From positions 53,820 through 117,819 of the forward strand of contig JAFTYO010000008.1 in the NCBI GenBank assembly GCA_017464685.1: a DNA stretch of 64,000 nucleotides. The letters are read 5' to 3'. Position numbers and translations under genes: made by a program. Origin of the DNA: Alphaproteobacteria bacterium (GTDB taxonomy: Bacteria > Pseudomonadota > Alphaproteobacteria > RF32 > CAG-239). Shown here one piece after another: positions 7,442-48,864 of the stretch (within the stretch, counting starts at the first letter, position 1; every line of letters starts with the position of its first letter). The notes below the pieces were generated by a model. The model worked only from the letters and a program-made list of their open reading frames with translations, made no database searches and was not told the origin of the DNA.

Positions 7442-7483
7442 AGCAAACTCCATAAAAATATATCGCGATTTTTACATACATTG

Positions 7484-9171: not shown

Positions 9172-9214
9172 AGCAAACTCCATAAAAATATATCACGTAT
9201 TTTTACATACATTG

Positions 9215-30044: not shown

Positions 30045-31013
30045 TTAAGTGACTTCAGTAATTGCACGCAAGTTACCATCACGATTAATTTGTACAACCC
30101 TCAATTTATGGTGCATTTCTTCAATGGTTTTTGCTCTGTCAATAGTAGGATATGTATGCAAAATACGATCGGTAAAAGCCTGATAGGCGGCTTCTGAACT
30201 TTCGGCGTGAATGGTTGCTAAGCAGTTATCATGACCAGATCCCATCAGTTCCCATAAAGCTCCTGCGTTTGATGTTGAAATCTCACCACCGATAATAGCA
30301 TCCGGAGTAAAACGAACAACCAAGTCAATAATTTTCGAATAGTCCATATTATTTGTTTGTTCAGTACGAGATAAAACCAAATGCACTCTATTTGGATGCG
30401 GAACTAAAAGTTCTCTTGTATCTTCAATAGTCAATACTCTTTTATGAATATCCAAAATTTTCAATAAGTTATTTAAAAATGTAGTCTTACCGGTTGCGGT
30501 TGCCCCGCTAACCAAAATATGATCACCGCGTTTAATACTTAAAAGTAATCTTTCATACGGATCTTCAGGATCTTTAATATCCTTTAAAGGATTAATCTTG
30601 TGCAAAGATTTACCTTGTACCAATCCATATGCATCAAGTCCGAATGCAACTTCATCACTATGAATACGAATCGTTAATGCAACACCTCCGGTTAAATCAT
30701 CATTATCGTACATCACATTTCTGCCGGCAATTGCCGAAAAACGATGATCCCCGGGAATTGTCGCATAAACAACCGGCGATCCTTGTATCGGATCAAAGGG
30801 AAGCTCATAAGTGTTGGCTATAATATATAACAAATCTGTCAAATACTCTTTTGAAAGCTTTTCATCCTTATACATTACCCATGGAAAAGCTCTTTTACCG
30901 CGAAGTCTTAACCATATCTGTCCTGCTTTATTAATTGCAACTTCTTCTATATTTTCTTGGTTGTACCAATATGACAGCGGCCTTAATACCGATTCCAATA
31001 CTGTAAAACTCAT
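30045..31013 (-). CDS. virB11: Type IV secretion ATPase VirB11
   Basis: 322 aa with Walker A SGATATGKTTF, an Asp box (TIEDTREL), and a His box (GSGHDNCLATIHA). It is the last gene of the operon. Confidence 0.92.
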   Translation of the reverse strand: MSFTVLESVLRPLSYWYNQENIEEVAINKAGQIWLRLRGKRAFPWVMYKDEKLSKEYLTDLLYIIANTYELPFDPIQGSPVVYATIPGDHRFSAIAGRNVMYDNDDLTGGVALTIRIHSDEVAFGLDAYGLVQGKSLHKINPLKDIKDPEDPYERLLLSIKRGDHILVSGATATGKTTFLNNLLKILDIHKRVLTIEDTRELLVPHPNRVHLVLSRTEQTNNMDYSKIIDLVVRFTPDAIIGGEISTSNAGALWELMGSGHDNCLATIHAESSEAAYQAFTDRILHTYPTIDRAKTIEEMHHKLRVVQINRDGNLRAITEVT

Positions 31014-31028
31014 TTGTTACTCCCCCAG

Positions 31029-34000
31029 TTAAAATAATGTTGCTCCGGATCCTGCCGTCGAATTGCTTGACGGAGGTGCCACAACATCTCCCGTTGATGG
31101 TGGCGGTGTTGTAGCATATGATGGCATTTGTTTTGGTGTAGATTTCTTTTGAGGTTCGTCATCTATTAATGCAACTCCTTCAGGTTCAGCATTAGATGAT
31201 TCTCCCCCATAAACCTCTATTTTGCTTCCGGAAGAACCTCCACCGGCTTTAGGAAGGTCTTTTTTATCTTCTTTTTTACCCTCATTACCGTCAATCAAAG
31301 GTCCTGGAGCAACACTTTCTTCTGCTGCCTCTTCTCGCTCACGTGCTGCCGTTCTTATCCATAAATCTACCTTAGGATAAATAATTAATCTGGTACCTGC
31401 CGGAACATATGATACTGCGGCAATATTAGTTTTACTTTCCAAAATTTGGTTAAATATCTCATTCATCCCTGTAATGAAGTTTTGACGTGCATCGCTTGCA
31501 GCATCAGCTCGCGCATCTTCTGTTGAGCCACCATTTCCGTCAGATTTATTTTCACCCGCTGCAGTAACAAATGCCAATGCACTTGTGAGAGTAGATGTAA
31601 CAATCGGTAATGTATATTTTTTGAGCAATTGTTCATCAATGTATCCCAAAGCTCCAGCTCTACCTTGTGCATCACCGGTTTGTGCAGAAGCAAATTCAAA
31701 CGCAGAACCATCCGGACGGATCAATCTTTCCCATGTTATATTAACTCTTACGGCACTGCCTGTTCCGCCTCCTCCATTGAAACCGCCCATTGTTCCCATC
31801 ACACGACTACCTGCAGGAATAACAATATTACGTCCTACTTCGGCATAGATATTTCTTTCAACAATGGCTGTTACAGGCACATTTTCAGCACCGGACATCA
31901 ATGTCCTTGCTAACACGGCCGGAATTGGTTTATCTGCCAAAATCATCTCACTCATATCAACACGCCATGTAGAAATTTTTCTGGGCACACCATCCCAATG
32001 CGTTTGCATGCCATCAAATGCTTCTTTGCTAAACTGTGTCGAAATTTTACCGATAGCTAATTCACTTCTCCTTAAATTTTGGTTTGCATCTAATATTTGT
32101 GCTCGCATCGGATCATACCTTTCACCGGCACCAAACCCCCCTCCGGGTCCTAAATTATTTGGTTGATTTCCTGTTCCATAAGCAGCACCATCACCAAAAC
32201 TTCCGCTAGGAATAAACATTTTATCTGCAGATGTGTTCTTAACTTCTTCAATCCCGACTAAAGCCCCATCATTATCTATAATCAATCCATCAGGCATTTT
32301 TTTGCCTATCATATTACCAAGTTTATCTATTACATCATTGTTTTGTAATATTTCCCCTAAATAGTTGCCATCCGGTGTCAACGCAATACCAATTGCTTTA
32401 AGCCCATATTTACCAGTAGCTTTTTCTGTTTCAATTTGCTGACTTATTTTTTCAGCTGGTTCAGGGGCACTCAATTCGCCCATTTTAATCTTGGTATCTT
32501 CTTCCTGTGTCTGTGTTTTTATAACAGGTTTTTGAATATTATAATATTGCAAATAAAAAGCTTTGGCAAACATCTTACCTTTTTCATTTCTGATATCACC
32601 ATTACTGTCAATTTTTCCTATAACTGAGTTTGTATTATCTACTATATCTCCATTTATTTGCAACTCACCTATGATTTCATTACTACGATTACGGATAAAA
32701 TAGTCTCTTGCACCTCTTCCGATAATATTATATTCTTTATCAATCAAAAATCCTCTATCAGCTTTACCTAAACGATTCCCCGAAAATCCTACCACACTTC
32801 CACCTTGAGTCAGATATCCGATTGCTTTATTGTTTTCATCATAAATATAGACATCATATAGAGCATAACCTATCTCTTTTCCTTCTGATACAACCTCTCC
32901 ATTATGAGTTACTTTTGCCAAAACTTTATTTTCATTACTTATAACTTCACCTAACCGATTAACTCTACCAATAAAATTATTTTCTTTATCAAAAGCAAAT
33001 TTATACTTAAAGGCCATACCGATGATCTTCTTTTTGTTTTGAGCTACGATATTTAAATTAGGTAATACATAACCGACAATTTCATTGTCTATATTCACAA
33101 CTTTACCTGACAACAATACTCGTCCAATCATAACATCATCATAATTTATCACCGGATCAGATGTAACGACCGCTCCTTTGAATGTATTATTAGAATCATA
33201 AAGTCTGCCATCACTCCTTATACAACCTAAATCAGCTTGTTCATAATTTAATACTCGACCTAAGGCAGTCACTGTTCCAAGATTGTTACCTCCGAAATCT
33301 GTAACCAAGCCCTTTAGTGGAATAAAACTATTCACTATTTGTGTATCGGAAACAACTTGACCATTTGTTAAGACTCTTCCAATTACAATATCTCGACTAT
33401 TACGAACATCTCCTCTCGGACTTACGACTCCTGAAAACTCACATGAATCATTAACGACACCTCTAAAACCGACTAACTTACCGATAATCGAGTTATCATT
33501 TCCTATTACTGTTTCGTTTTCAACAACAGAACCTATCTTATTTAATTGAAAATCATAAACAATACCGTCTCTTCTTACATATCCGAGCATATTTCCGTTA
33601 ATACCTACAGCTATTTGATTATTTCCGGCATATCCTATAATAGGCATCAAATTATCTTTTACATCATTTGTACTTTCAACTGCTTGATATTCAGGTATTA
33701 TTTTAGCAATCACCGTACCTGAATTATTTATAACCAAGTTATTTTGACCCAAATGTCCTAATGATTCCATTTGAAGAGACATAACATAATATGGATCTAT
33801 GTTATACCCAATCAAAAGATTTTGTTCATCTATAAGTTGCCCGAATTGTGTAAGTTTAACTTGTCTCTCGGTGGGCATACCCGATATTTTACCATCTACA
33901 TCAACATAGCCTTTTGCTAATCCAGCTTGATCATATACTGTTGTCAAACCGATTGCATTTCCTGTCAAAATATTATCACTTGAATATACATATCCAAAAG

Positions 34001-35255
34001 GTGATACTTTATATTTGATATTTTCTTTATTAAAATCAGCACCTATAAAATTCATTCCCAATATGGTATCAGATAAATTTATAATTTGCATAGGCTCCAT
34101 TCCGGCTCCAAGCATTCTGCCAATGTTATCAAAAACATATTGTCCCTTCACATATCCTACCAAAGTTCCCTTTGTTGATACTGCGGATCCACTGCGTAGA
34201 GCTATCGCACTTAAATTACCTAAATAATCAAAAACAGGACCGGCATATGTCACTTCTCCTATAGGAGCACCATCAATATTATACACAATACCTCTGGCTC
34301 CCACACTTCCTATAACATCTGTTGTTTTGACAATTTTACCATCAGGAATGACACGTCCCAGATATTTTCCATTAAAATCGGTAGCGGTTGCCGATATTTC
34401 AATAAAATAACCTATTACTTTACCCTTTGTATCAATAATCTTATTATCTGCCCGTAATCTGCCTACTGTTTCACCTTTATTTATTACTTCTCCGTTATAT
34501 GATATAAAACCAAGATATTTACCATATGTGTCTATAGTATACCCTCCAGTAATAACTTTTCCTACTATTTGATTGTCTTTATTGTATACATAACCATTTG
34601 CGTGCACACTTCCTATTACCTTAGCATCAAAATCCGTAACTTTTCCACCGGGAGCAACGCTGCCTATAAACTCTCCGGTTAGTGAAACAACCATTTTAGA
34701 TGATACTAATTTACCATCCAATACATAATCTGTTCCTGTATTTTTATATGCATATCCCATTGCGGAAACAAAACCGATGTTTTGACCCTCTATACTCACA
34801 TATAGTCCGTCACCGGTTAAACGCCCAATTGTATCTCCTTCATTGTTATATATTAATCCCGGATATAATACAGCACCTATTATGTTGTATGAATCATCAA
34901 CAACTAAGGCATTTGGTAAAGTTTTACCGATAATTTTTCCTGTAGGAAGACGTACCGTACCATCATTATTTACCTTACCTAAAAACTTATTATCATTGCC
35001 AATTGCAATACCTTGCGGAACAACTCCACCAATAATTTCATTATTATTATTTACAATAAAACTGTCTGCCGTTACTTTACCGATAATATCATTTTGCTTA
35101 CCGATAACTGAACCATCAGGAATCACGGTACCTATTATATCACCATTAAAATTTATGGCTGTAATTTCATTTGCATATGCATTTGATGCCATGTATACCG
35201 TCATCAATATAAATAATCCGGCAATTTTTAATGTTTTATGTAACATATTCAGCAC
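31029..35255 (-). CDS. virB10: Giant VirB10-family protein: N-terminal hydrophobic segment, about 970 aa of short Gly/Ile-Gly repeats, TrbI/VirB10 barrel domain, and a Pro/Ser-rich acidic tail
   Basis: 1408 aa. The GTG start at 35255 lies 6 nt after GGAGGA. Residues ~1095-1302 carry VirB10/TrbI hallmarks: IPAVLARTLMSGAENVPVTAIVERNIY, IPAGSRVMG, RVNITWERLIRPDGSAFEF, GDAQGRAGALGYID and YVPAGTRLIIYPKVDLWI. Residues ~30-1000 are repeats of the form ..G..IG.V...G.V.... Confidence 0.88.
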   Translation of the reverse strand: MLNMLHKTLKIAGLFILMTVYMASNAYANEITAINFNGDIIGTVIPDGSVIGKQNDIIGKVTADSFIVNNNNEIIGGVVPQGIAIGNDNKFLGKVNNDGTVRLPTGKIIGKTLPNALVVDDSYNIIGAVLYPGLIYNNEGDTIGRLTGDGLYVSIEGQNIGFVSAMGYAYKNTGTDYVLDGKLVSSKMVVSLTGEFIGSVAPGGKVTDFDAKVIGSVHANGYVYNKDNQIVGKVITGGYTIDTYGKYLGFISYNGEVINKGETVGRLRADNKIIDTKGKVIGYFIEISATATDFNGKYLGRVIPDGKIVKTTDVIGSVGARGIVYNIDGAPIGEVTYAGPVFDYLGNLSAIALRSGSAVSTKGTLVGYVKGQYVFDNIGRMLGAGMEPMQIINLSDTILGMNFIGADFNKENIKYKVSPFGYVYSSDNILTGNAIGLTTVYDQAGLAKGYVDVDGKISGMPTERQVKLTQFGQLIDEQNLLIGYNIDPYYVMSLQMESLGHLGQNNLVINNSGTVIAKIIPEYQAVESTNDVKDNLMPIIGYAGNNQIAVGINGNMLGYVRRDGIVYDFQLNKIGSVVENETVIGNDNSIIGKLVGFRGVVNDSCEFSGVVSPRGDVRNSRDIVIGRVLTNGQVVSDTQIVNSFIPLKGLVTDFGGNNLGTVTALGRVLNYEQADLGCIRSDGRLYDSNNTFKGAVVTSDPVINYDDVMIGRVLLSGKVVNIDNEIVGYVLPNLNIVAQNKKKIIGMAFKYKFAFDKENNFIGRVNRLGEVISNENKVLAKVTHNGEVVSEGKEIGYALYDVYIYDENNKAIGYLTQGGSVVGFSGNRLGKADRGFLIDKEYNIIGRGARDYFIRNRSNEIIGELQINGDIVDNTNSVIGKIDSNGDIRNEKGKMFAKAFYLQYYNIQKPVIKTQTQEEDTKIKMGELSAPEPAEKISQQIETEKATGKYGLKAIGIALTPDGNYLGEILQNNDVIDKLGNMIGKKMPDGLIIDNDGALVGIEEVKNTSADKMFIPSGSFGDGAAYGTGNQPNNLGPGGGFGAGERYDPMRAQILDANQNLRRSELAIGKISTQFSKEAFDGMQTHWDGVPRKISTWRVDMSEMILADKPIPAVLARTLMSGAENVPVTAIVERNIYAEVGRNIVIPAGSRVMGTMGGFNGGGGTGSAVRVNITWERLIRPDGSAFEFASAQTGDAQGRAGALGYIDEQLLKKYTLPIVTSTLTSALAFVTAAGENKSDGNGGSTEDARADAASDARQNFITGMNEIFNQILESKTNIAAVSYVPAGTRLIIYPKVDLWIRTAAREREEAAEESVAPGPLIDGNEGKKEDKKDLPKAGGGSSGSKIEVYGGESSNAEPEGVALIDDEPQKKSTPKQMPSYATTPPPSTGDVVAPPSSNSTAGSGATLF
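31350..31973 (-). other. TrbI/VirB10 C-terminal barrel domain within the giant VirB10
   Basis: Coordinates derive from my residue count (aa ~1095-1302) and are approximate to about 30 nt. Confidence 0.75.
32256..35168 (-). repeat. Coding repeat region of giant VirB10 (degenerate ~9-17-aa units, core G-x-x-[IVL]-G-x-[VIL])
   Basis: Seen directly in the translation, e.g. NGDIIGTVIPDGSVIGKQNDIIGKVTADSFIVNNNNEIIGGVVPQGIAIGNDNKFLGKVNNDGTV. Confidence 0.8.
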
Positions 35256-35256
35256 G

Positions 35257-38200
35257 TTAGTTCCTCCGATTTTGAGCTACTTCTTGCATTGCATAACCGG
35301 CCACCTGTTTATCTAAATTAACAAAGGAGCCATTACTTTTTAAATATCCTATTTCTTGACCATTAATACCTCTAACTCTTCCATTTGAGGATAAATAACC
35401 AAGATATTTACCATCAGAGGAAAGTATAGATATCCCTATTTTATAAATAGTTCCCATCACATTATTTTGATTATCAATCGCTAATCCTGATGATAAAACT
35501 TTTCCTATAATACTTCCGTCAAAAGATTTTATTTGGCCATCAAATAAAACAAAACCGACGACTTCATCTTGATTATTGATTACAATATCTCCACTTACAA
35601 TTTCACCAATAAATTTACCTTCCGTATTACTTACTTTACCGTCAGAATGAACATTTCCGATGATAATATTTTTGGTGTTTGATACGGTTCCATCAGGCAA
35701 TACAACGCCTATGACATTACCTCCAAAATCAATGACCGTTCCTCTTTTTAACACACTTATATTCTTATCTGTTGATCCTCCTGGAAGCACAAAAGTCATA
35801 AAAGACCCATTCAAACTCATAAGCTCACCGAGTTCATTGGTATAACCTTTATAATTTCCGAAAATATCAATCGCCGGCAGTTCTTCAACCCGCTCTCCCA
35901 GAATATTTTGTGTATCATCTAAAATCAATCCGCTACCATTTTCATAAGCAATAATTTTTCCTTGTTGATTTATAACATCGCCATTTGATAACACATAACC
36001 TAAATATGACCCATCATATCCTATAGCGGCACCGGATTTCACAATCGCTCCCATATACTGACCTTTATCATTAAACCATCTGCCACTTGAATCAGAATTT
36101 CCTATATTTTCACCAAACCTGTTTATAACTCTGCCGTCATAATTTATAAAACCTGATTTTTCACCATTGACATTCCTTACACTTCCCATTTGTAAAGGTT
36201 TTGCATTAAGTGAATTATAAAAACTGTAACCATCACCATAAACTTTATCAATGGCAACACCTTTGGAATCATAAACTTTTCCATCTGCAAAAATACGGCC
36301 AACTTCTTCAGAAGATGAGCTGATTACCCGATTATATTCCGGTAATGCTATACCTATAATACGATTCTTCTCACTGACAATGTATTTATGTAAAAGCATT
36401 TTTGCTCCCGGATAATCTTTTAGTACAAAAGTTCCGTCTTCTTTAAAAGTTGTCATCAGATTACCCTTCATATCAAAGATATAAAATTTATCTGACATTT
36501 TACCTAAATATGCTCCTTTAAAATCAAAAGCCTCACCGCTTGCCGCAACACAACCAACAGGTTTTGATGAAGCTATTACTTGTCCATTAGGATTCATCCT
36601 TCCGATAACTGAACCATTTGCAGCATATATTGCTTTGTATTCGGCAATTTTTCCTATCACTTCACCTTGCTCATTTAATACTGTACCATCCGGATTTGTA
36701 CAACCAACATAAGTGTCTTTATTTTTAACTACACCTTGCTCATTTGCCGCACCTAAGTAATTGCAGTGTTCATCAAATACTTTTCCTGTCTTCACGGGAT
36801 GTCCGACATAAATTCCTTTTTCATCATACACACTACCATCCATGTGTACCCTATATGGCATTGGTTTATTATTTTTGGTTACAATACCATCTTTGCCCAA
36901 CACTCCATTATTACTACATCCCCATCCTATAATCAATGACCCTTTAACGCCTTTACCGATATAGTTTGCTCCTGTATTGTCTTTTATCAATCCATTAGGA
37001 AGCATTCGACCAAATACTTGGCCCTCTTCATTTGTAATATCACCACTGGAGGAAACTATTCCTAAAACAGTTCCGTTCGGTCCTATCGGAACCAATTCGG
37101 TTTTTACTACCGAACCAATATATTCTTTTTCATAGGCAACTACATACCCATCTTTATCTAACACTCCGATAATGTTTCCATCTTTATCTATGGCATTTCC
37201 GTTTTCATCGATATATCCTATCACATTCCCGTTCTCGTCTACCATAATCGTGGCATAATCACCTGCTTTACCTATTGTATTACCCTCATTATCAACAATT
37301 GTTCCATCTTCTAGCATCTTACCGATTGTATTTCCGCTAAAATCTATAACATTACCGTTTTCATCAACATATCCGATTACATTACCGTTCTCATCATAAG
37401 CCATCCTTCTTGATTCACCGGCCTTACCTAATGCTTTATAAACATTATTATTTTCATCGACATAACCCAAAAGTGTGCCATTAGTACCAAATACTTCATT
37501 GTTTTCACCGACATACCCTATTACATTGCCATTTTCATCAAGTACAACATCGGCATATTCACCGGCCTTGCCGATAGTCTTTCCGTTTTCATCGACAATC
37601 GTTCCATCTTCTAGCATCTTACCTACGGTATTCCCGTTAAAATCAATTACATTACCGTTTTCATCAACATATCCGATTACATTACCGTTCTCATCATAAG
37701 CCAGTCTTCTTGCTTCTCCTTTGCGACCTAACTTTTCTTTATCTACTTTATAAGCTAAACCATTTTCATCTACATACCCGACAATATTACCCTCAGCATC
37801 TACAATAGAATTATCAGGCATTATAACACCGAGAACGTCACCGTTTTCATCAACTGCCGTACGGCCTGATTTACTGACATGACCTATCACATTACCGTTT
37901 ATATCTACAACTTCACCATCCTCATTTAGTCGCCCTATCACATTACCGTTTTGATCAACAACCGTTCCATCATCAAGGACTCTGCCTATTATATTTCCGT
38001 TGTCATCATAAACAAAACCGGCATCAATAGCTTTTCCTATAACATTGCCGTTTTCATCAACAACAGTTCCATCTGCCAATACTTTTCCAATTACATTACC
38101 CTTAAAATCAACTGCCGTACCATCCGGTGTAACAAAACCAACAATATTACCATTATCGTCATAAATGAGTTTTTTATTACCGGCAACACCTATAATATTG

Positions 38201-39126
38201 CCGTCGTTATCAACTACCAAACCGTCAGCATTAACTCTGCCAACAATATTACCATTCTCGTCTCTTACATATCCGTCATCATCTATGTATCCTAAAACAT
38301 TTCCATCAGGATCATAAGCAACTCTCATCTTTGATGTATCAGCGCTAACTCTTCCTATAACATTTCCGTTTTCATCAACAACTTCACCTTTTTCATTGAC
38401 TTTTCCTATAACATTTCCGTTTTCATCAACTACTGTTCCATCATCAAGGACTCTACCGATTATATTTCCGTTTGCATCTCTTACAACTTTTGCCCCGTTA
38501 GAATTTATAGGTAATGCTGTATCACAATAATTACAGTTTTCTTTTTCAATAGCACGTCCCTCAACCGGAACTTTTTGCGCTTTGGCATTAGATGCACTAA
38601 CATTTGTTTCATGCCATGAAACAATAAAATTATTTTGAACATTTCCCGAAACAACAGGAGCCCACTTCATTGTAACATTGCAAGTTTGGTTTCCTCTTAG
38701 TTCAGCACTTGTACAATTATCTTCAAAAACAAAACCATCAAAAGGCGGCTCTGCTAATTTAACAGATACAATCCTTATAGCTCCTTTTCCGTTTGTACCG
38801 ATTGTAAGCACATTTTGAGCTTCTGTCCCCAGAACTACTTGCCCCATTGATACCGGATTGGGTGTGGTTGTTATCGGATCTTCAACTTCTTCCATATCGT
38901 CAAACTCTATAGTTTCCATTAAAGCATCACCGGATTCTTCAATACCTAACACATCAGCATCATCCGAAAAAACAACCTCTTGTTCAACAACTTCTCCAGA
39001 ACCACTTGAAAACAGCAACAAAAGACCAAACAGAAAAACCACAAACGAAGTTATTCCAACTATTAATATAATTCGATTAGTCTTACGAACATAGCGTTCC
39101 GAAGATGTTAATACCTCTTTACTCAT
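35257..39126 (-). CDS. Membrane-anchored giant repeat protein encoded between virB9 and virB10 (no known T4SS counterpart)
   Basis: 1289 aa. Its ATG overlaps the virB9 stop (ATGA), and its stop TAA lies 1 nt before the virB10 GTG. Architecture: a short cytoplasmic N-terminus and one TM helix (IILIVGITSFVVFLFGLLLLF); an acidic linker; a putative Ig-like module (aa ~92-175); a highly regular D-E-N-G-N-V-I-G repeat array (aa ~210-665); then about 600 aa of degenerate repeats of the same type as in VirB10. Confidence 0.85.
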   Translation of the reverse strand: MSKEVLTSSERYVRKTNRIILIVGITSFVVFLFGLLLLFSSGSGEVVEQEVVFSDDADVLGIEESGDALMETIEFDDMEEVEDPITTTPNPVSMGQVVLGTEAQNVLTIGTNGKGAIRIVSVKLAEPPFDGFVFEDNCTSAELRGNQTCNVTMKWAPVVSGNVQNNFIVSWHETNVSASNAKAQKVPVEGRAIEKENCNYCDTALPINSNGAKVVRDANGNIIGRVLDDGTVVDENGNVIGKVNEKGEVVDENGNVIGRVSADTSKMRVAYDPDGNVLGYIDDDGYVRDENGNIVGRVNADGLVVDNDGNIIGVAGNKKLIYDDNGNIVGFVTPDGTAVDFKGNVIGKVLADGTVVDENGNVIGKAIDAGFVYDDNGNIIGRVLDDGTVVDQNGNVIGRLNEDGEVVDINGNVIGHVSKSGRTAVDENGDVLGVIMPDNSIVDAEGNIVGYVDENGLAYKVDKEKLGRKGEARRLAYDENGNVIGYVDENGNVIDFNGNTVGKMLEDGTIVDENGKTIGKAGEYADVVLDENGNVIGYVGENNEVFGTNGTLLGYVDENNNVYKALGKAGESRRMAYDENGNVIGYVDENGNVIDFSGNTIGKMLEDGTIVDNEGNTIGKAGDYATIMVDENGNVIGYIDENGNAIDKDGNIIGVLDKDGYVVAYEKEYIGSVVKTELVPIGPNGTVLGIVSSSGDITNEEGQVFGRMLPNGLIKDNTGANYIGKGVKGSLIIGWGCSNNGVLGKDGIVTKNNKPMPYRVHMDGSVYDEKGIYVGHPVKTGKVFDEHCNYLGAANEQGVVKNKDTYVGCTNPDGTVLNEQGEVIGKIAEYKAIYAANGSVIGRMNPNGQVIASSKPVGCVAASGEAFDFKGAYLGKMSDKFYIFDMKGNLMTTFKEDGTFVLKDYPGAKMLLHKYIVSEKNRIIGIALPEYNRVISSSSEEVGRIFADGKVYDSKGVAIDKVYGDGYSFYNSLNAKPLQMGSVRNVNGEKSGFINYDGRVINRFGENIGNSDSSGRWFNDKGQYMGAIVKSGAAIGYDGSYLGYVLSNGDVINQQGKIIAYENGSGLILDDTQNILGERVEELPAIDIFGNYKGYTNELGELMSLNGSFMTFVLPGGSTDKNISVLKRGTVIDFGGNVIGVVLPDGTVSNTKNIIIGNVHSDGKVSNTEGKFIGEIVSGDIVINNQDEVVGFVLFDGQIKSFDGSIIGKVLSSGLAIDNQNNVMGTIYKIGISILSSDGKYLGYLSSNGRVRGINGQEIGYLKSNGSFVNLDKQVAGYAMQEVAQNRRN
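37120..37719 (-). repeat. Tandem duplication of a 300-bp (100-aa) super-repeat
   Basis: 37301-37410 aligns with 37601-37710 at an exact 300-bp offset. 37349-37403 and 37649-37703 are identical over about 55 nt. At protein level, GEARRLAYDENGNVIGYVDENGNVIDFNGNTVGKMLEDGTIVDENGKTIGKAG matches GESRRMAYDENGNVIGYVDENGNVIDFSGNTIGKMLEDGTIVDNEGNTIGKAG. Confidence 0.9.
37132..38499 (-). repeat. Highly regular coding repeat array (core DxNGN[VI][IVL]G)
   Basis: I count at least two dozen G-N-x-[IVL]-G cores by eye between aa ~210 and ~665. Confidence 0.85.
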
Positions 39127-40802
39127 TGAACTCTAACCACACTACAAAATACGCCGTTTCTACCTAATTGACCACAAATCTGATCCCCAGTATCAATCGA
39201 TTCAACAGGTCCGATCCTCAAATGGAACAACTCTTTACCTTGACCGTCTGCCGGAGCATCAACAGAATAAAATGGTTGATAACCACCTAATACCGTATTG
39301 TATTTTCTAGATAATTCTTGCCATAAATCTTCAAGATTATTTACATCAGCATCTGTACCAAGTTCAACAGAAATACTGGCAGCATTTTGATTTTCGAAAC
39401 CTTGACCAAAACGATATCCATTAAAAGCAACTCCTTTATCATTTGTATTTGCAACAGATGAATTTGAAGCTTGCTTCTCTAGAGCCTTCTTAACATATTC
39501 CGGAATTAAAAGCTCACCGTTAGATCCGAATTTTACCGTATATTCTCCAACCAAACGCTCACCTGAAGCATCTGATGCCTCCGATTTAGCTGAAGTTAAA
39601 CCCTCACTATTACTAGAGCCATTTTGTCCTAATGTAATTGAAGAAGAAATGGGAGCAACGTTTACCTCCGGCTCAGGTTCAGGCTCAGGCTTTTTATTTA
39701 TATCTATAAGCTCAAAGCCCTGAACAACACTTTCCTCTTGAGGTTTTACTCCGCTAGCAGTTCCTGTAGGAATATTCCAATTATTTTGCGGAGCCTTGGG
39801 CGCAAATTCCGTGCCTTGGTCATCTGAACGACGCAACTTTAAACAGACCAATCTCTTGCCGTTACGTAAAACCATATCCCCTACTCCCTCAACAATAATC
39901 AAACGATTATCGGGACCTGCGCTTCTGAAACCAACAGGAGTTTCAACACGCTCAACTATTAAAGTTACTATAGGTCGTTGCACCATTGTCAAAGCTCTTT
40001 CACCAAAATCAATATAGGTAAAAATATCATCACGCCACACTCTTTCAGGAGCAATCACGACATCATCCGGATTAGGAACATAAACCTCTATATCAAAACG
40101 AAACTTTGTAGGATCTAAAGGAAGACTTTTAATCCAATCATCTTTTTGATTACGCTTTGTAAATGTAGAATCAACCGACTTTGCTCCTCCATTAAAGTTA
40201 CTTGCGTTTATTCGTCCTCCTGATCCGGTCATACCTGATATATTTTGACCTCCTCCGGAATTTCCGTTTGCTCCAACAACTTCAATATCAATAACAGAAT
40301 TTGTTAAACGTTCAGTGTTAAAGCCCTCACTTCTGGCATAAAAAACATATTTATTACCCGAACGACCAAATACTATAATATTGGTATCTACACCAAAGCC
40401 ATTTTGAGGATATAATAAAAGTGTATTAGGACCGGAAATTTGTCCTGTAAATTTATTATTATCACCAATGTATACATCTTCTATCATTTCCCACTCTGGA
40501 AAATTCACAAGCGTTAACATCCCTTCTCTCAAACGCAACGGCAACACCAAATCAGGCGACCAGTAATATTTAGAATATGCAGGTTTTGTTTGTCCTTCAC
40601 CTAAATTTTGCAACGGATCAAGCCACGCACTTTGAGTCATACCTAATGAACCCATAGCATAGCTCATATTCATAGAAGGATACTGCCCTTGTGCATTATT
40701 AGCTGTTTGATCAAGGCTATTCATGGTTACTTGTGCCTTAACATCAAAACTAACCAAAAACAACATTACTGCATAAATTATTTTAGTTACATTATTTTTC
40801 AT
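39123..40802 (-). CDS. virB9: VirB9/CagX-family outer-membrane core protein with a long C-terminal extension ending in a SPOR-like domain
   Basis: 559 aa with a signal peptide. The VirB9 N-domain pattern is LTLVNFPEWEMIEDVYIGDNNKF ... NTLLLYP ... DTNIIVFGRSGNKYVFY. The VirB9 C-domain pattern is PERVWRDDIFTYIDFGE ... RLIIVEGVGDMVLRNGKRLVCL. A PEPEPEPE linker and a Ser-rich region follow, and the last ~85 aa look like SPOR. Confidence 0.85.
   Translation of the reverse strand: MKNNVTKIIYAVMLFLVSFDVKAQVTMNSLDQTANNAQGQYPSMNMSYAMGSLGMTQSAWLDPLQNLGEGQTKPAYSKYYWSPDLVLPLRLREGMLTLVNFPEWEMIEDVYIGDNNKFTGQISGPNTLLLYPQNGFGVDTNIIVFGRSGNKYVFYARSEGFNTERLTNSVIDIEVVGANGNSGGGQNISGMTGSGGRINASNFNGGAKSVDSTFTKRNQKDDWIKSLPLDPTKFRFDIEVYVPNPDDVVIAPERVWRDDIFTYIDFGERALTMVQRPIVTLIVERVETPVGFRSAGPDNRLIIVEGVGDMVLRNGKRLVCLKLRRSDDQGTEFAPKAPQNNWNIPTGTASGVKPQEESVVQGFELIDINKKPEPEPEPEVNVAPISSSITLGQNGSSNSEGLTSAKSEASDASGERLVGEYTVKFGSNGELLIPEYVKKALEKQASNSSVANTNDKGVAFNGYRFGQGFENQNAASISVELGTDADVNNLEDLWQELSRKYNTVLGGYQPFYSVDAPADGQGKELFHLRIGPVESIDTGDQICGQLGRNGVFCSVVRVQ
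39126..39380 (-). other. SPOR-like (septal peptidoglycan-binding) domain at the VirB9 C-terminus
   Basis: ISVELGTDADVNNLEDLWQELSRKY...ELFHLRIGPVESIDTGDQICGQLGRNGVFCSVVRV. This fits the beta-alpha-beta-beta x2 SPOR pattern (..vqlG.......A..l...l........yRvriGPf.s...A..lC..L...G..C.vv). The match is to a remembered pattern only. Confidence 0.55.
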
Positions 40803-41572: not shown

Positions 41573-41761
41573 CTATATTGTAGCTACAAACCAATCCGGC
41601 AAAGTGTGAGGTAATTCCACTTCTATGCATGCACATGGAGACAATTTGAGCTCATTTACATCTTTACCTACACCAACCGGTTCAGGTTCATAATATGAAC
41701 CAAACATTCCGCATGCTGATAAAAACAACAACACCAGAAATAAAATTATTTTTCTACTCAT
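41573..41761 (-). CDS. virB7: VirB7-like small lipoprotein
   Basis: The track ORF extends to 41794. I prefer the ATG at 41761 (MSRKIILFLVLLFLSACGMF...), giving 62 aa with lipobox LSAC and additional Cys. The call rests on size, lipobox and position next to virB8/virB9. Confidence 0.5.
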   Translation of the reverse strand: MSRKIILFLVLLFLSACGMFGSYYEPEPVGVGKDVNELKLSPCACIEVELPHTLPDWFVATI

Positions 41762-41909
41762 TGCAATGTTCCTTACAACTATATATCCAGACAATCTCTA
41801 TGTTAAACTTGTTATTTTTAAAAGTCTAACATGAAGCAAACAAATCCCCAACTTATCAACAAGTCAGAAACCGTTTTATGATATCATAAACTAAAAAGAT
41901 TAAAATAAG

Positions 41910-42683: not shown

Positions 42684-45600
42684 TCAATATACAGCACAAT
42701 ATGGTACCATAACATTATTGGCATTTTCTTTATACGACTTTTCAACTTCTTTGTCATATTCTCCTTTCGTATCTCCATCAGCCTGAGCCGTCTTCAGACG
42801 TTTTTCAACTTCATCAAGACTGAGCATATCCGACAGACTTACCAATTCTTTATTATCCATTTTAAGCATTGCCAATGTGTTGTTGTTTTTTGATATCTTT
42901 TCTCTTAACAAATCATTCTTTCCGACAAAGCCTTTTAACATTTTATCTGCCTTATTGACTCTGCTTTCTTTTTCTAAATTCAATCTATTGAGAATCTCTT
43001 TATATGTGGCATTATCTGCTAAATCAAACTTTTCAGGCGGTGTGTATCCATATTTCTCAAACTCGGTTATAAGCTTTTGTCTGGCCTCATCAATCTTAAC
43101 TTCCATCTGATCTAATGATTTCTGATATTCCATTTCTCCCTCAACAAATTTTATATAATCACCAAATTGGTTTTTATCTAATATCATATTATCATACAAT
43201 CTTTTTCTCGTCTTGTTATAATCATCATCCAATTCTGCCAAAAATTCCATCGCATCATTTAACGACTGATTGATTTGTAATCCTGATGTTGATCTGGCAA
43301 ACAATGAAATTTCACTCAAATTCTTTTCCTCTATTTCATACCTATCAAGAGAAGCTGTAGCCACATCATCATCAAAAAATGTCAAATCAATATATTGCGC
43401 ATATTTGTCTTTTTCGCCTTCTTTTGAAGCTTTTTTAACCAACACACTATACACTCTATAATCTTTAATATGTTTACAACTTGGATAATCTGCTTTATAA
43501 CTTCCCCGATAATGACCGTTTTCAATATCAATGGTATACGAATCATCTAATAAGCATGGATACAAACCTCCTCGCATAAGCTCATCCGTATATTGTATAT
43601 CATGATAATAGTGCTTATTGCCATTATCTGATAAAGGCAATATCGGAACATCTTTTTCTACAAATCCTTTGGGCCCCAAAATTCGTTTCCAAACTTCAGG
43701 AACAAAATCTGTATATACAACTGTTTTTTCATCTTGATCTTGGCAGAAATATTCTTTTCCATCACCATCACAACTTGTGCTAAGCATCGCACCAACATTC
43801 AGTAACCCATTTTTGGTAATAAAGCCGCTCTCTGATAGCGCAAGATTATCATAATCTATACCATCAAGATGCACAAATTCTCTTAATGGAGGCATATATG
43901 TTTGCACAATTGTTTTAGGCGTAGCAAAATCTTTACCATTGGGCACTATACCAACATAATATTGTGTATCAACGTTATAACAGGCATTACTTTGACATAT
44001 TTCATCAAACAATTTTCCGGCCATTACCTCAACAGCAAGTCTTTCAACGGCTGCTAATTGTACATATCCTGTTAAATAGTCTATATAATCTTCCAAATCC
44101 ATTGTCGGATTTTTAATTTTATCTAACATTTCCTTATGTATCTTGACAATTTCATTGTGCTTTTCAATATCAAAGATATCATCTTCCATATCTTGTATTT
44201 TTTCATAGGCCTCATTAACTGCATTTAATGCATTTTGACGAACAATTTCTTCTGCTTTTGCCGCTGTATCAATTAAACTTTTAAATATTCTGTCTTTGAT
44301 AGTCCCCGTATAACTTATAAGAGTATTAAGTGTTGAGGCTTCTACATCTTTTAACTCTTCATATGCATTATTTAATTTTACTTCAGCAAGATATTCCATA
44401 TATGCTGCATCTTGAGCATATTGAGCTTTTAAGTTTTTAAGCTCCTTCTTTTTTCTTTCCAATTTGTCTTTAAGATCATCAATTTTATATCTCAAACTCT
44501 CTGTTTCAGATAATGCTTTTTTGGCTTTCTCTTCAGAAGATAAAATTGTTTTTTCAGCATTAGCTATTTGTTTTTCTGCACTGTTTTTAATGTTAGATAT
44601 ATTAACATGCTCTGATTTATCGGCTCTGTCTTTGGCTAAATCAACTATCATATTTTCAGCATTAATCTGACTATTTGCATCGTTTTTTTCTTCTTGTGCT
44701 TTATTATAAACCATTTTGGTATCATTTAACTCAATGTTAAGTTCATCAAGCTCTTTATATATCCCATTAATTTCACCTACCAAAGCATCTTTGCTTTCCA
44801 AAAACTCTGTTTGTTTTTTTCTCATTTCGATATCTAATGTATCTTGTGTGTTTTTTACACCATCAATATTTGCAGATGCATATTCTTCTATTGCTTCTGA
44901 TAAGCTGTTAAAACCATCTGTATTATATGAAACAACATCTTCCAGTAATATACCTCGCATTTTTGGGCCTTCATAATCCTCTGCTTCTTTTTCTTCCTCA
45001 TCTTCTTCAACATAAATTTCATTGCTTATTTTTTTTGCTAAAGATAATGTTGATTTGCGCATATCAAAACTATTTAAAAATATTTTCATATTTGAATATT
45101 TATTTTCAAGATATTGTTCATAAAAATATTTTTCATCATTCCACATCGGATATTTATTTTTAAAAGTTCCGTATACCGAATTTTCGCCTAGCATCATTTC
45201 ATTACCGATCTTCTTTGACATTAAAGCCCCTAATTGCCACGCCAAAATTTCTCGTTCTCTGTCATTTTGTTCCATCTTAAGCTCATCTGTCGGTTTTATC
45301 AACGAACTATCATCCAAATTTTGTTCATTTTCCGCAATCAACTCTTTTTCGGTTTCTTCCATATCATCTAAATTTGATATCGATTGTGTTGATGATATAT
45401 CAGCATCGTTTAGTTGCGTAGCATAATCATCACTTGAAAATTCCAACGTCTTTTCTGCTTTAGCAATTTTATATGCTGACAACAACCAACCAGCCAAGCC
45501 TCCACGACGTTCATATCGATTAAGTCCATATGTCGAACAAATTTTAGTACTATCATTCTGGCATAAAGAATCTCCTTCTACTAACGTAGATAAATTATCT

Positions 45601-46967
45601 TTTGTAACTTTAAGTCCGGTATCACAAAAAATATCCAACCCATCTGTATATTTACATCCTTTTCCAAGCCACGCAGAAACCGGATCTTCATAGTAACGTC
45701 CCAAATACGAAACAACGCAATCTTCAGAACTTTTAACACGTTCAATAATACTCTCATGCAGATCTTTCATCCGATTATATTCTATAAACGGTTCCTTTAG
45801 TACAGACATCTGTTGCATCAAATTGTGTATATCTGTTGCTTCTTTTAACATGAAAGTTATTTCATTTGCACTAACCAAATCGGCAAACTGATTCCCCGCT
45901 CCCCTAAACGTTGATTTTGCTACCTCCGGCTTAACTTTTACAACTTCTCCTGCAGACTTTTTGGTTTTACTCAAATCTACTTTCTTTATCCAAGATGGTA
46001 ACGTATCACTAAGCTGTGCATGAGCAGTTTTTGATTTTAAATTAAAGTTATATTCATTTTCTGAAACTTTATCCGTTTTAGCTGTAGGATCCACAGGTTC
46101 AATACCGCTTCTAAATGATTTTGATGCTTCATATTGAGCATTTAGCGCTGTTAACTCTTCAGCTATTCTTAACACAGAATCATATATATCGTTTACCTTG
46201 TAATAATTTACCCAAGAATTTAGTTCGTCATTTGCCTCACCCGTTTCACCTCCGACTTCAGGATTGGCTTCAACAGCTGTACCGGTAACATATTTTTCGC
46301 TCATATCACTGATATCTTTATCTATAAGATCCATAGTTTCATCCATTTCACGAGATGCAATATAAAGTTCAATAAGCGAATCATTACTAAATTCTATTAT
46401 TTTATCCTTATAAGCTTTCTTAACACCCTCTGTATCATTCGGATATTTTTCCAAAAACTCTTGCGGATATTCTCCAAACAATACATAAAGAGCTTTTACA
46501 ACTTCTTCTTCGTTATGAATATCAGCTACTTGACTTTCTTGGATTTCTCTCGAGCTTGCAACATTAGAATCACCTTTTTTCTTTTTATGTAAAGCTCCTG
46601 TGATGCTTTCTTTTTGCTTATTGACCCATTCTGAGGCTTGACCGACTTTATCGTTTACCCATTCTTTAGCATCGCCGACCGTATCATTTACCCATTTTGT
46701 AGCCTTACCGACTTTATCGTTTACCCACTCTGTGGCATCTCCTTTAAATTTCTTAATCTTAGCCCTTAGTTTAGCAATTTTTTGTTGAGCGGTTTCAGGG
46801 GTGTTTGCAGTAACATTTCCGGCGGCCTCAACACCTCCTGAAGCATCTGCCGCCACATCCAATGTAGGTGAAATAGGTGTGGGAGGTAATAATGCAAAAG
46901 ATGATGAAATTGACATACATATAGTCAAAATCAGCAAAAGACAAAGTTTAACAACATATTTTTTCAT
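42684..46967 (-). CDS. Giant secreted coiled-coil protein (1427 aa), unknown function, T4SS-operon encoded
   Basis: It has a signal peptide (..SSSFA-LLPP) and four 11-aa WVNDKVG repeats. Long heptad-like Glu/Lys-rich stretches are present, with Cys-containing globular segments in the middle and C-terminus. No internal TM helices are seen. Confidence 0.7.
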   Translation of the reverse strand: MKKYVVKLCLLLILTICMSISSSFALLPPTPISPTLDVAADASGGVEAAGNVTANTPETAQQKIAKLRAKIKKFKGDATEWVNDKVGKATKWVNDTVGDAKEWVNDKVGQASEWVNKQKESITGALHKKKKGDSNVASSREIQESQVADIHNEEEVVKALYVLFGEYPQEFLEKYPNDTEGVKKAYKDKIIEFSNDSLIELYIASREMDETMDLIDKDISDMSEKYVTGTAVEANPEVGGETGEANDELNSWVNYYKVNDIYDSVLRIAEELTALNAQYEASKSFRSGIEPVDPTAKTDKVSENEYNFNLKSKTAHAQLSDTLPSWIKKVDLSKTKKSAGEVVKVKPEVAKSTFRGAGNQFADLVSANEITFMLKEATDIHNLMQQMSVLKEPFIEYNRMKDLHESIIERVKSSEDCVVSYLGRYYEDPVSAWLGKGCKYTDGLDIFCDTGLKVTKDNLSTLVEGDSLCQNDSTKICSTYGLNRYERRGGLAGWLLSAYKIAKAEKTLEFSSDDYATQLNDADISSTQSISNLDDMEETEKELIAENEQNLDDSSLIKPTDELKMEQNDREREILAWQLGALMSKKIGNEMMLGENSVYGTFKNKYPMWNDEKYFYEQYLENKYSNMKIFLNSFDMRKSTLSLAKKISNEIYVEEDEEEKEAEDYEGPKMRGILLEDVVSYNTDGFNSLSEAIEEYASANIDGVKNTQDTLDIEMRKKQTEFLESKDALVGEINGIYKELDELNIELNDTKMVYNKAQEEKNDANSQINAENMIVDLAKDRADKSEHVNISNIKNSAEKQIANAEKTILSSEEKAKKALSETESLRYKIDDLKDKLERKKKELKNLKAQYAQDAAYMEYLAEVKLNNAYEELKDVEASTLNTLISYTGTIKDRIFKSLIDTAAKAEEIVRQNALNAVNEAYEKIQDMEDDIFDIEKHNEIVKIHKEMLDKIKNPTMDLEDYIDYLTGYVQLAAVERLAVEVMAGKLFDEICQSNACYNVDTQYYVGIVPNGKDFATPKTIVQTYMPPLREFVHLDGIDYDNLALSESGFITKNGLLNVGAMLSTSCDGDGKEYFCQDQDEKTVVYTDFVPEVWKRILGPKGFVEKDVPILPLSDNGNKHYYHDIQYTDELMRGGLYPCLLDDSYTIDIENGHYRGSYKADYPSCKHIKDYRVYSVLVKKASKEGEKDKYAQYIDLTFFDDDVATASLDRYEIEEKNLSEISLFARSTSGLQINQSLNDAMEFLAELDDDYNKTRKRLYDNMILDKNQFGDYIKFVEGEMEYQKSLDQMEVKIDEARQKLITEFEKYGYTPPEKFDLADNATYKEILNRLNLEKESRVNKADKMLKGFVGKNDLLREKISKNNNTLAMLKMDNKELVSLSDMLSLDEVEKRLKTAQADGDTKGEYDKEVEKSYKENANNVMVPYCAVY
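46614..46739 (-). repeat. Four tandem 33-nt (11-aa) repeats, consensus x-x-E-W-V-N-D-K-V-G-x
   Basis: ATEWVNDKVGK ATKWVNDTVGD AKEWVNDKVGQ ASEWVNKQKES. The period is also visible at nucleotide level (ttacccattc / ttacccactc). Confidence 0.85.
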
Positions 46968-46980
46968 GTTTCATTCCTCC

Positions 46981-48195
46981 CTACTTGGCTCTAACCTTGC
47001 TCAAAAAGCTTGTTCGTCCTTCATCGGTTTTTATATCGTCTTCAGTAAAAACATAGTTATCCAAATTTAGCGATGCCGGATTTTTATAATAATTTTTAAG
47101 GCGATAATCTTGCATCATCATATCTTGAGCTGTTTTCAGTCTGATATCTGCAAGCATCAGTTTGTTATAATCTTGTAAAAGCCTTATTTCTTGAACAGTT
47201 TGTTCTATAGTCATACCAATAGATGATAATTGCTGATCAGCCCCTACAACATTTGTTTCAATTTGGTCACTTTTATCTTGTTTTTGAACATATGCATTTT
47301 TAAACTTGGCACCAGTTACAAAAGCTTTAACCATTGCCTTTATCAAGTCTTGTGTACGCTTTTTCTTAACTCTTGCCGTTGTTTGTGCATTTTCTGCCTC
47401 TCCGGCAAGCAAAAAATTGTCTTTTATAACTTTATTATATTCTGTTGATTTATCTTCCGCTGACATACTTTTTAAGCTTTCAATGTCTCCGACATTTAAA
47501 TCGCCGAATTTACTTTGAGCCGTATCAAAAACATTTTTCAAATTTTCGCTGGCTTCTTGTTTCTCTTTTGATGCTTCTTGATAGCTTTCGTCTGCTTGTA
47601 AAATTTGGCTGTTATCACTTTCAAGATCTGTCATCTGTGAATCAAATTCTTCAATCTCATTTTCATACTCAGATATCTTGCTGGCTATAGTTGCTTTGGT
47701 TTGAGAATCTTGTGCTTGTTCATATAATTGCTCCAAGTTTTCAATATTTCCTTCTGCCGCTTGTTTTTTTCCGGCTGCTTCTTGATACAAAGCCCCCCTT
47801 CTGTTTTCCATTTTATATTCAGCTTCCTGTTGTTTTACATTTAGAGAACTGGGAAGACTGTCAAGCTGTTCCTCAGCCTGAGCATATTCATCTTCGTATG
47901 ATTTTTCCTCTTCTTCATCACCATATCCCGGAACTGTCGAATCTAGGGTTTCAGCCACACTTTCCTTGAGCATTTTTCCCTTTTCATACAGTGTTTTGGC
48001 TCGTTGTCCGGTTTGCTCCACTTCCTTTATTGTAGCAGCTCCGTCTGTGACAACTCCCGCTGCCTCACCCATATCACCGGCAAAATCTAACGGCGCACGT
48101 TCCAACATTGACAAAGCATCAAGCTTTAACCCTGCATTTGCCTGATTAGCAAGAGAAAGCATCAGAATAAATATCAATAAATAGTTTTTATTCAT
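46981..48195 (-). CDS. Secreted acidic coiled-coil protein (404 aa), T4SS-operon encoded
   Basis: It has a signal peptide (..ANQANA-GL) and is highly Glu/Gln/Lys-rich and helical. I recognise no family. Confidence 0.65.
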   Translation of the reverse strand: MNKNYLLIFILMLSLANQANAGLKLDALSMLERAPLDFAGDMGEAAGVVTDGAATIKEVEQTGQRAKTLYEKGKMLKESVAETLDSTVPGYGDEEEEKSYEDEYAQAEEQLDSLPSSLNVKQQEAEYKMENRRGALYQEAAGKKQAAEGNIENLEQLYEQAQDSQTKATIASKISEYENEIEEFDSQMTDLESDNSQILQADESYQEASKEKQEASENLKNVFDTAQSKFGDLNVGDIESLKSMSAEDKSTEYNKVIKDNFLLAGEAENAQTTARVKKKRTQDLIKAMVKAFVTGAKFKNAYVQKQDKSDQIETNVVGADQQLSSIGMTIEQTVQEIRLLQDYNKLMLADIRLKTAQDMMMQDYRLKNYYKNPASLNLDNYVFTEDDIKTDEGRTSFLSKVRAK

Positions 48196-48199
48196 AGTT

Positions 48200-48853: not shown

Positions 48854-48864
48854 ATACTCCTTAA

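Follow-up and report, generated by a model that had tools for sequence, protein, structure and literature searches.

How does a VirB10 protein join the two membranes of its cell if its own reading frame encodes no membrane anchor? VirB10 is known to span both membranes, a task that the literature gives to it alone, and to carry ATP-dependent signals from motors in the inner membrane to the pore in the outer membrane (PMC12857230). The question is raised by a stretch of 64,000 nucleotides (nt) from an uncultured alphaproteobacterium (assembly GCA_017464685.1, contig JAFTYO010000008.1, positions 53,820 to 117,819), called the window below, in which an open reading frame (ORF) of 1408 amino acids (aa) lies on the minus strand at 31029..35255, stop codon included. 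Pfam and the homologues pointed to VirB10, and the identical protein of the metagenome-assembled genome (P0001, MBQ8870107.1) is named 'TrbI/VirB10 family protein [Alphaproteobacteria bacterium]' at NCBI. A preliminary description of this DNA had proposed that the N-terminus of the protein resembles a cleavable signal peptide, and that this would change how the inner-membrane ATPases could be coupled to the outer-membrane pore. The signal peptide held up in our analysis, and the missing anchor was found in the upstream ORF of 1289 aa, the two being parts of a single chain in relatives. The 1408-aa ORF is thus probably the distal, outer-membrane half of a giant VirB10 encoded by two genes, part of a type IV secretion system (T4SS) of the VirB/ComB-like kind on the chromosome of an uncultured gut alphaproteobacterium.

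The N-terminus of VirB10 and its upstream partner gene

The start of the ORF was set at a GTG codon, three codons upstream of the ATG chosen by NCBI for P0001. The GTG was preferred because GGAGG lies 7 nt before it and because the same layout of Shine-Dalgarno sequence, stop codon, one nucleotide and GTG was found in L002, a relative locus that is 44% identical. The predicted Sec signal peptide, which ends in AxA, covers aa 1-28 (35172..35255, minus strand; MLNMLHKTLKIAGLFILMTVYMASNAYA, then NEITAINFNG), as judged from the length of its core and from the N-termini of homologues. Its hydrophobic, uncharged core has 13 aa (median among homologues, 14), and no 19-aa window in VirB10 exceeds a Kyte-Doolittle mean of 1.5. 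Among 56 distinct homologue N-termini, position -1 is alanine in 51 and serine in 5, and all except one have A, V, G or S at -3. The signal segment is free to vary in sequence and length, and the residues x-EITAI(D/N)FNG just past the site are invariant. The short core, the residues at -1 and -3, the variable segment and the invariant mature N-terminus together form the signature of a signal peptidase I substrate, and we infer that the N-terminus of VirB10 is a cleavable Sec signal peptide rather than a membrane anchor. If it were an uncleaved signal-anchor, VirB10 itself would still be tethered to the inner membrane. The uncharged runs of up to 20 residues in a few homologues would suit this explanation, which we nevertheless regard as very improbable given the 13-aa core, the A or S at -1 in every one of the 56 N-termini, the small or aliphatic residue at -3 in 55 of them, and a hydropathy far below the value of about 3 that is reached by the real anchors of the giants and of the upstream partner described below. 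A cytoplasmic N-terminus and a transmembrane segment within one polypeptide, the bitopic topology expected of VirB10, are therefore missing from the VirB10 ORF, and the anchor lies in the upstream ORF.

This upstream gene (35257..39126, minus strand; 1289 aa), hereafter the partner, was assigned as the putative proximal half of a split VirB10 on the basis of its match to the Pfam family Bflower_2 (E 2e-78), its homology to the giants and its synteny. The encoded protein consists, in order, of a cytoplasmic peptide, a transmembrane helix, an acidic stretch, an immunoglobulin-like (Ig-like) domain and an array of beta-flower repeats. Its first 41 residues (39004..39126, minus strand) comprise the conserved cytoplasmic motif MSKEVLTSSERYVRKTNR, which has 18 residues, and a helix with a peak 19-residue Kyte-Doolittle mean of 2.93, a predicted bitopic anchor. 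The motif is common to the orthologues of the partner, the giants and a VirB10 of 579 aa (P0197). The Ig-like domain, of the ASH/HYDIN type, was placed at aa about 90-165 (38632..38859, minus strand) from a Pfam ASH match with an E value of 7e-5 that lies below the gathering score; a domain of like type stands N-terminal to the barrel in another relative, P0208. The beta-flower array follows at aa about 215-1289 (35260..38484, minus strand) and is more regular than that of VirB10 according to Pfam and repeat analysis. At the DNA level, direct-repeat families span about 37180-38480, with 51-nt (17-codon) tandem repeats of 69-82% identity at 37883-38478 and a duplication of 219 nt, and a weak Pfam RHS_repeat match was also found in this protein. 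Partner lengths vary from about 1100 to 1580 aa among relatives, more than those of VirB10, and the N- and C-termini of the orthologues are nearly invariant, including the C-terminal ~30 residues. In databases, the proteins of this kind, VirB10s included, are labelled 'TrbI/VirB10 family', 'DUF3659 domain-containing' and '5-fold beta-flower protein'.

Origin of the two-gene form

A search of our library with the barrel revealed three architectures among the relatives. Architecture A comprises proteins of 1400-1888 aa that have a signal peptide and the start EITAIDFNG, like the VirB10 of the window. Architecture B comprises giants, all of 1930-2406 aa except one of 1498 aa, that match both the beta-flower and TrbI families of Pfam, and architecture C comprises the ordinary VirB10s of 400-630 aa. 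The giants begin with xLSSSEQYVKKSNR and a transmembrane segment, which is the N-terminus of the partner. In 16 of the 17 giants tested, aa 1-200 aligned from end to end with the non-repetitive aa 1-210 of the partner (E 1e-29 to 1e-7), the alignment being partial, from aa ~54-72 onward, in two of these 16, and the VirB10 of the window aligned to the C-terminal ~1300 aa of the giants. The gene order agrees with this correspondence. In L004, one giant (P0164) occupies the place of both genes in the order VirB8-VirB8-VirB9-giant-VirB11, with no partner gene, and the window, L002 and L009 have the order VirB8-VirB8-VirB9-partner-VirB10-VirB11. In addition, the 579-aa P0197, which has no repeats, matches TrbI only and belongs to a complete VirB2-B11 plus VirD4 locus, starts with STSESFVKRSERR and a transmembrane segment. 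Because the same N-terminal motif is found in this repeat-free VirB10, the partner carries the genuine VirB10 N-terminus. Judged by homology, what the upstream 1289-aa ORF encodes is the N-terminal half of the ancestral VirB10.

The junction between the two genes (35253..35268, minus strand) was read directly from the sequence. The partner ends with the codons CGG AGG AAC TAA (R R N stop), which hold the Shine-Dalgarno sequence GGAGGA, and the GTG of VirB10 follows after 1 nt. The ending EVA(K/Q)NRRN-stop is kept in the window, L002, L008 and L009, and about 35 partner orthologues have this C-terminus; throughout the split clade, the Shine-Dalgarno sequence lies within the codons CGG-AGG-AA and the start of VirB10 follows one to three nt on. 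Inside the giants, no NRRN and no segment resembling a signal peptide was found. The frames on the two sides of the junction are offset by one nt in the window and in L002 and are the same in L009. Programmed frameshifting or readthrough was rejected, since a frame relation that differs between genomes argues against recoding. If a sequencing error, a frameshift or a programmed recoding site had interrupted one giant VirB10 gene, the pair would be an artefact or a pseudogene, and two ORFs that stand one nt apart in different frames could result. In dozens of divergent genomes, however, and in hundreds of assemblies made independently, the break is accompanied by a Shine-Dalgarno sequence, a start codon and a signal peptide of its own, and together with the varying frame relation this leaves the artefact with practically no probability.

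To place the split forms, a neighbour-joining tree of 48 sequences was built from 230 barrel columns with 200 bootstraps. The split forms and the giants were grouped against the ordinary VirB10s in 196 replicates, and the two-gene forms were monophyletic in 187. The giants alone were monophyletic in only 6 of the 200 replicates, which indicates that the split clade is nested within them. On the evidence of the alignments, the junction and the tree, we conclude that a single ancient fission with translational coupling probably gave rise to the two-gene form. The lineage would thus run in a series from VirB10s of normal size (~580 aa) through giants that reach 2406 aa in a single chain and exceed CagY in length to the two-piece form, a natural experiment on whether the VirB10 relay needs covalent continuity. 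The split VirB10 is conserved in hundreds of gut metagenome assemblies, human and animal, as part of a chromosomal system, and related forms are annotated as Azospirillum sp. CAG:239 on hundreds of contigs. Because the system is chromosomal, conserved and common in gut metagenomes, it may matter for the way in which uncultured gut Alphaproteobacteria interact with hosts or neighbours.

The beta-flower array, the barrel and the proposed association of the halves

Between the signal peptide and the barrel, the hairpin region of VirB10 (aa 30-1005) consists of about 52 degenerate units of 17 residues. The main array of beta-hairpins (aa 30-905; 32541..35168, minus strand), with about 49 of these units, was delimited from Pfam, the period of 17 and AlphaFold2 (AF2) models. 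Two beta-flower families of Pfam were matched above their gathering cut-offs, namely Bflower_2 (PF21785; E 1e-37, 128.9 bits against 38, in 7 stretches) and Bflower (PF21784; E 9e-15, 55.5 bits against 25). The dominant spacing of the anchor [IVL]-G-x-[IVL] is 17 residues, and the BLOSUM autocorrelation at a shift of 17 was +0.13, compared with -0.91 +/- 0.08 in shuffled sequences (~13 standard deviations above), with harmonics at 34, 51, 68 and 85; the signal at 85 (5 x 17) is marginal. The unit consensus, x-V-V-[DN]-x-[DN]-G-x-[VI]-[IL]-G-x-V-x-x-[DN]-G, has two [DN]xG turns and contains the [DNEQ]xxG hairpin-tip motif of beta-flowers, and the strands predicted by AF2 are short, as in that fold, with 3-6 residues. 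The AF2 model of aa 28-1010, built from 37 orthologues, reached a predicted local distance difference test (pLDDT) score of 88.8 and a predicted template modelling (TM) score of 0.82 with about 104 short strands, of which about 98, at a pLDDT of about 90, belong to the main array. A predicted TM-score so high for 983 residues points to an array that would be a rigid assembly rather than beads on a string. The main array is followed by a charged linker (aa 915-951; 32403..32513, minus strand) that is predicted to be disordered (pLDDT about 30) and by a second short cluster of three hairpins (aa 952-1005; 32241..32402, minus strand), which is confident in both AF2 models and has a conservation of 0.63-0.67.

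The mean identity over 25 orthologues is 0.64-0.77 in aa 41-200, 0.70-0.75 in the barrel and 0.33-0.5 in the middle repeats. The segment aa 41-200 (34656..35135, minus strand) is thus the most conserved part of the array and a candidate docking surface for the upstream partner. Orthologue lengths are stable, with 1383-1445 aa in the closest ~35. The concern that the ORF might be a chimeric mis-assembly of repeats was not borne out: mis-assembly was excluded because a like architecture recurs in more than 1000 homologues from independent assemblies and repeats at the DNA level, from which such an error could arise, are absent from the VirB10 gene.

The barrel follows a Gly-rich linker that is nearly invariant in the orthologues (aa 1011-1052, ..GPGGGFGAGERYDP..; 32100..32225, minus strand). 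The TrbI/VirB10 beta-barrel domain at aa 1105-1298 (31362..31943, minus strand) was assigned to its family by the Pfam TrbI match (PF03743; E 7e-28, 98 bits against a cut-off of 35), by NCBIfam (T4SS_ComB10, 118 bits; T4SS_VirB10, 84 bits) and by similarity to solved structures, the best of which by sequence is ComB10 of H. pylori (2bhv, E 1.7e-24), followed by CagY (E 9e-9 to 3e-7), TrwE, TraF and the Xanthomonas VirB10. DotG was not among the PDB sequence matches at E <= 0.01. Within the barrel, an antenna-like helix-loop-helix (aa 1199-1276; 31428..31661, minus strand) aligns with ComB10 and is presumed to be the element that spans the outer membrane; its two long helices, aa 1199-1231 and 1248-1276, come from an AF2 model of aa 940-1408 that was used for secondary structure only, and their pLDDT is only about 50.

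The ComB10 alignment stops at about aa 1312, and the last 106 residues (aa 1303-1408; 31032..31349, minus strand) form a low-complexity tail, acidic and then rich in Pro, Ser and Thr, which was delimited by alignment of the tails and by AF2. This tail, in which S, G, A, E and P abound, is predicted to be disordered and has no Pfam match. It carries short conserved islands (PxLIDG/D, VY, LIDD and PPPS), and in all 120 homologues compared it ends with a penultimate leucine and a terminal aromatic residue. The islands and the terminal Leu-Phe look like docking peptides. The claims of the preliminary description on this protein can now be set against these data. The barrel that it had recognised near the end of the 1408-aa protein was placed in the TrbI/VirB10 family by the profile search, and the ~1000 residues of repeats that it saw in place of the linker proved to have a periodicity signal far above that of shuffled sequences and a consensus that contains its core motif G-x-x-[IVL]-G-x-[VIL]-x-x-x-G. 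Their assignment to PF21785 and PF21784 with a period of 17 bears out its view that the repeats are unlike those of CagY and DotG. It was right that an extra tail ending in ...GATLF follows the barrel, although the tail is not peculiar to this VirB10, since tails of about 120 aa are also present on the normal-sized relatives P0197 and P0208. It is the terminal L-aromatic motif alone that is specific to the beta-flower group.

We propose that the periplasmic linker of a normal VirB10 was expanded to a beta-hairpin array, giving a giant bitopic VirB10, from which two translationally coupled halves, one of the inner membrane and one exported by Sec to the outer membrane, later arose by one fission event or by a duplication with degeneration. 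In the outer-membrane core, the barrel with its putative antenna helices would assemble with the VirB7-like lipoprotein and VirB9, and the rigid hairpin array would hang into the periplasm. The first ~170 residues of mature VirB10 may dock non-covalently onto the array of the partner, probably at its conserved C-terminus. Such docking would restore the VirB10 bridge across the envelope, and the cytoplasmic ATPases could still signal to the outer-membrane gate. The arrays would probably form an enlarged periplasmic scaffold, comparable to those of the expanded Cag and Dot/Icm machines. A re-association of the halves through their arrays is what we infer from the conserved termini. It is unlikely, by our estimate, that the halves do not re-associate, in which case VirB10 would be a subunit of the outer membrane only, the partner would be an independent DotF-like accessory of the inner membrane, and the classical link would be lost or made by another subunit. 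This alternative would fit the differing character of the arrays, that of the partner being acidic, regular and repeated at the DNA level and that of VirB10 degenerate, and also the identities of the best-scoring partner orthologues returned, 37-46% in a search whose matches did not include the closest genomes as against up to 75% for VirB10. However, in each of the split-clade loci examined the two genes directly adjoin each other and are translationally coupled, both proteins descend from one polypeptide, and the mature N-terminus of VirB10 and the C-terminus of the partner are among the best conserved parts of each.

A more far-reaching version of the proposed bridge is that this is a natural two-piece VirB10 in which ATPases and gate are linked by a non-covalent joint of rigid beta-flower arrays, although this conformational link has been taken to require one continuous polypeptide. 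The halves would then be free in copy number, so that a symmetry mismatch like that of other T4SSs would be less severe, and 14 or more copies of the array would make up a new periplasmic cage or conduit in a machine whose operon has no recognisable VirB5 or VirB6. We offer this version tentatively and consider it rather doubtful. With either version, the beta-flower fold, hitherto a structural curiosity without a function, would gain a cellular setting as the periplasmic part of a secretion machine, and the system is of interest for the structural biology of T4SSs.

Several observations weigh against our explanation of this locus. The tree is distance-based, covers 230 columns and is rooted only by the ordinary VirB10s. 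The mature N-terminus of VirB10 often matches best to aa ~360-470 of the giants, and the partner and VirB10 add up to 2697 aa, above the ~2200 aa of the giants; a tandem duplication followed by complementary loss would therefore be as possible as a clean cut. When the C-terminus of the partner and the N-terminus of VirB10 were compared with the giants by BLAST to map the cut, the result was ambiguous owing to the repeats, whose degeneracy keeps the position of the cut from being mapped. The cleavage of the signal peptide is predicted from sequence rules. The conservation of the termini, from which the docking was proposed, could have other causes, and at the C-terminus of the partner it is partly forced by the embedded Shine-Dalgarno sequence. 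The array could consist of closed five-fold flowers or of a continuous hairpin sheet, and the model of the barrel and tail (aa 940-1408) is poor, with a pLDDT of 48 from a shallow alignment of 38 sequences. Finally, VirB5, VirB6 and VirD4 were not recognisable within the window.

Comparison with known systems and gene neighbourhood

The VirB10 of the window shares with the canonical VirB10/TrbI proteins (A. tumefaciens VirB10, pKM101 TraF, R388 TrwE and H. pylori ComB10) the C-terminal TrbI barrel with a putative antenna-like pair of helices and the position of its gene between virB9 and virB11. It differs from them in having a signal peptide in place of the cytoplasmic segment and transmembrane helix, the anchor being encoded by the separate upstream gene, in its extra tail of ~100 aa, and in the ~1000 aa of beta-hairpin repeats that replace the Pro-rich periplasmic linker; aa 30-1005 are hairpin repeats and aa 1011-1052 are Gly-rich. 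Repeat expansion of VirB10 has precedents. The CagY gene of H. pylori has large direct repeats at the DNA level, which recombine and so alter the number of repeats. Contingency repeats of this kind were rejected for the VirB10 gene of the window, which has no repeats in its DNA. Like that VirB10, CagY is a VirB10 homologue of an expanded T4SS that is enlarged by repeats N-terminal to the barrel, but the 17-aa beta-hairpins found here are unrelated to its repeats, and the VirB10 of the window has no transmembrane segment. CagY is said to span both membranes as a single chain through two transmembrane regions and has been described as the largest VirB10 homologue (PMC13507270). The single-chain giants reported here reach 2406 aa, compared with 1927 aa for the CagY chain in the PDB. 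The VirB10 homologue DotG/IcmE of Legionella is likewise expanded, by a long stretch of pentapeptide repeats N-terminal to the barrel. It keeps its own membrane anchor, whereas the repeats of the window have a period of 17, belong to the beta-flower families and gave no pentapeptide match in Pfam. In the core complex, DotG is accompanied by DotF, a bitopic inner-membrane protein that is in this respect like our partner (PMC12857230). The partner, however, is by its homology a piece of VirB10 itself and not an unrelated accessory.

The beta-flower fold was defined from AlphaFold models as a fold of unknown function with a [DNEQ]xxG hairpin tip (Durairaj et al. 2023, PMC10584680). Its families (Pfam PF21784, PF21785 and PF21786, clan CL0395) are characterised by hairpins that close into a shallow barrel of 8, 10 or 12 strands with 4-, 5- or 6-fold symmetry. 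The beta-flowers described are small single domains of ~100 aa, some of them lipoproteins, whereas about 50 hairpins are joined in one chain here and fused to the barrel of a secretion system. By sequence, the repeat region matched nothing in the PDB at E <= 1. In fold searches of the PDB and BFVD, its model had no global match, only a local hairpin likeness to RHS/teneurin proteins, propellers and phage fibres with TM-scores <= 0.16. For the shells of RHS/YD-repeat proteins and teneurins, Foldseek returned an E value of 4e-27 to a teneurin-like protein and to Rhs cores of type VI secretion systems, but the TM-score was 0.09 at a root-mean-square deviation of ~30 Å, no Rhs core, plug or toxin domain is present, and RHS/YD repeats are ~20-21 residues long as against 17. 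Membership in this group was rejected, the likeness being local only and the VirB10 ORF having no RHS_repeat match. Our search of the literature found no description of beta-flower VirB10s, of giant alphaproteobacterial VirB10s or of a split VirB10.

The relative P0208 is a lipoprotein of 554 aa that is named 'VirB10' by JGI and consists of an Ig-like domain and a TrbI barrel. Its gene (9001-10665 in L005 and L006) stands beside yajC-secDF with no other T4SS genes near, and lipoboxes were found in about 18 barrel relatives of ordinary size. From the orphan setting of P0208 and these lipobox relatives, it seems that TrbI barrels are put to use outside T4SSs as well. As an orphan outside any T4SS locus, the P0208-type lipoprotein was rejected as a precedent for a VirB10 without an anchor.

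On the minus strand, the operon comprises two VirB2 genes, a VirB3-like gene, VirB4, four genes for secreted coiled-coil proteins, VirB8, a VirB7-like lipoprotein gene, a second VirB8, VirB9, the partner, VirB10 and VirB11, so that the split gene adjoins virB9 and virB11, as is usual in the VirB10/TrbI family. The VirB11 ATPase (30045..31013, minus strand; 322 aa; NCBIfam VirB11, E 8e-41; Pfam T2SSE) is encoded directly downstream of VirB10. A TrbL-like gene of 1092 aa lies downstream on the opposite strand in L009. The VirB9/CagX homologue (39123..40802, minus strand; 559 aa; Pfam CagX, E 1.4e-10) has a stop codon that overlaps the start of the partner by 4 nt. Its C-terminus, aa ~477-559 (39126-39374, minus strand), is a SPOR domain, which binds peptidoglycan (PF05036; E 5.9e-5, 23.7 bits against a cut-off of 21), and this suggests a link between the core complex and the cell wall. 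Between the two VirB8 genes, a small ORF (41573-41794, minus strand) with the lipobox MSRKIILFLVLLFLSAC... likely encodes the VirB7-like lipoprotein, and an ORF of 58-65 aa occupies the equivalent position in L002, L004, L007 and L009. The four genes for charged, coiled-coil-looking products (42684-50319, minus strand; 484, 217, 404 and 1427 aa) matched no family in Pfam or NCBIfam, an N-terminal signal peptide being the only feature of each. Of the two VirB2/TrbC-like pilin genes (53115-54101 and 54141-54686, minus strand), one encodes a pilin of 328 aa with an acidic C-terminal extension of ~230 aa beyond the pilin domain.

Elsewhere in the window, a type IVb-pilus-like cluster (57202-62459, plus strand), divergent from the T4SS operon, encodes a TcpQ-domain protein, a secretin, a PilO-like accessory protein and a protein of 521 aa. 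In an ORF of 490 aa (14069-15541, plus strand), three predicted transmembrane segments come after a protein kinase domain of the eukaryotic type (Pkinase, E 7e-12). Three secreted proteins that have no Pfam family are encoded on the minus strand at 6062-7453, 7585-9183 and 10113-11870, and the first two of these are tandem paralogues with the common N-terminus MEFAMKKFILTLLCL.

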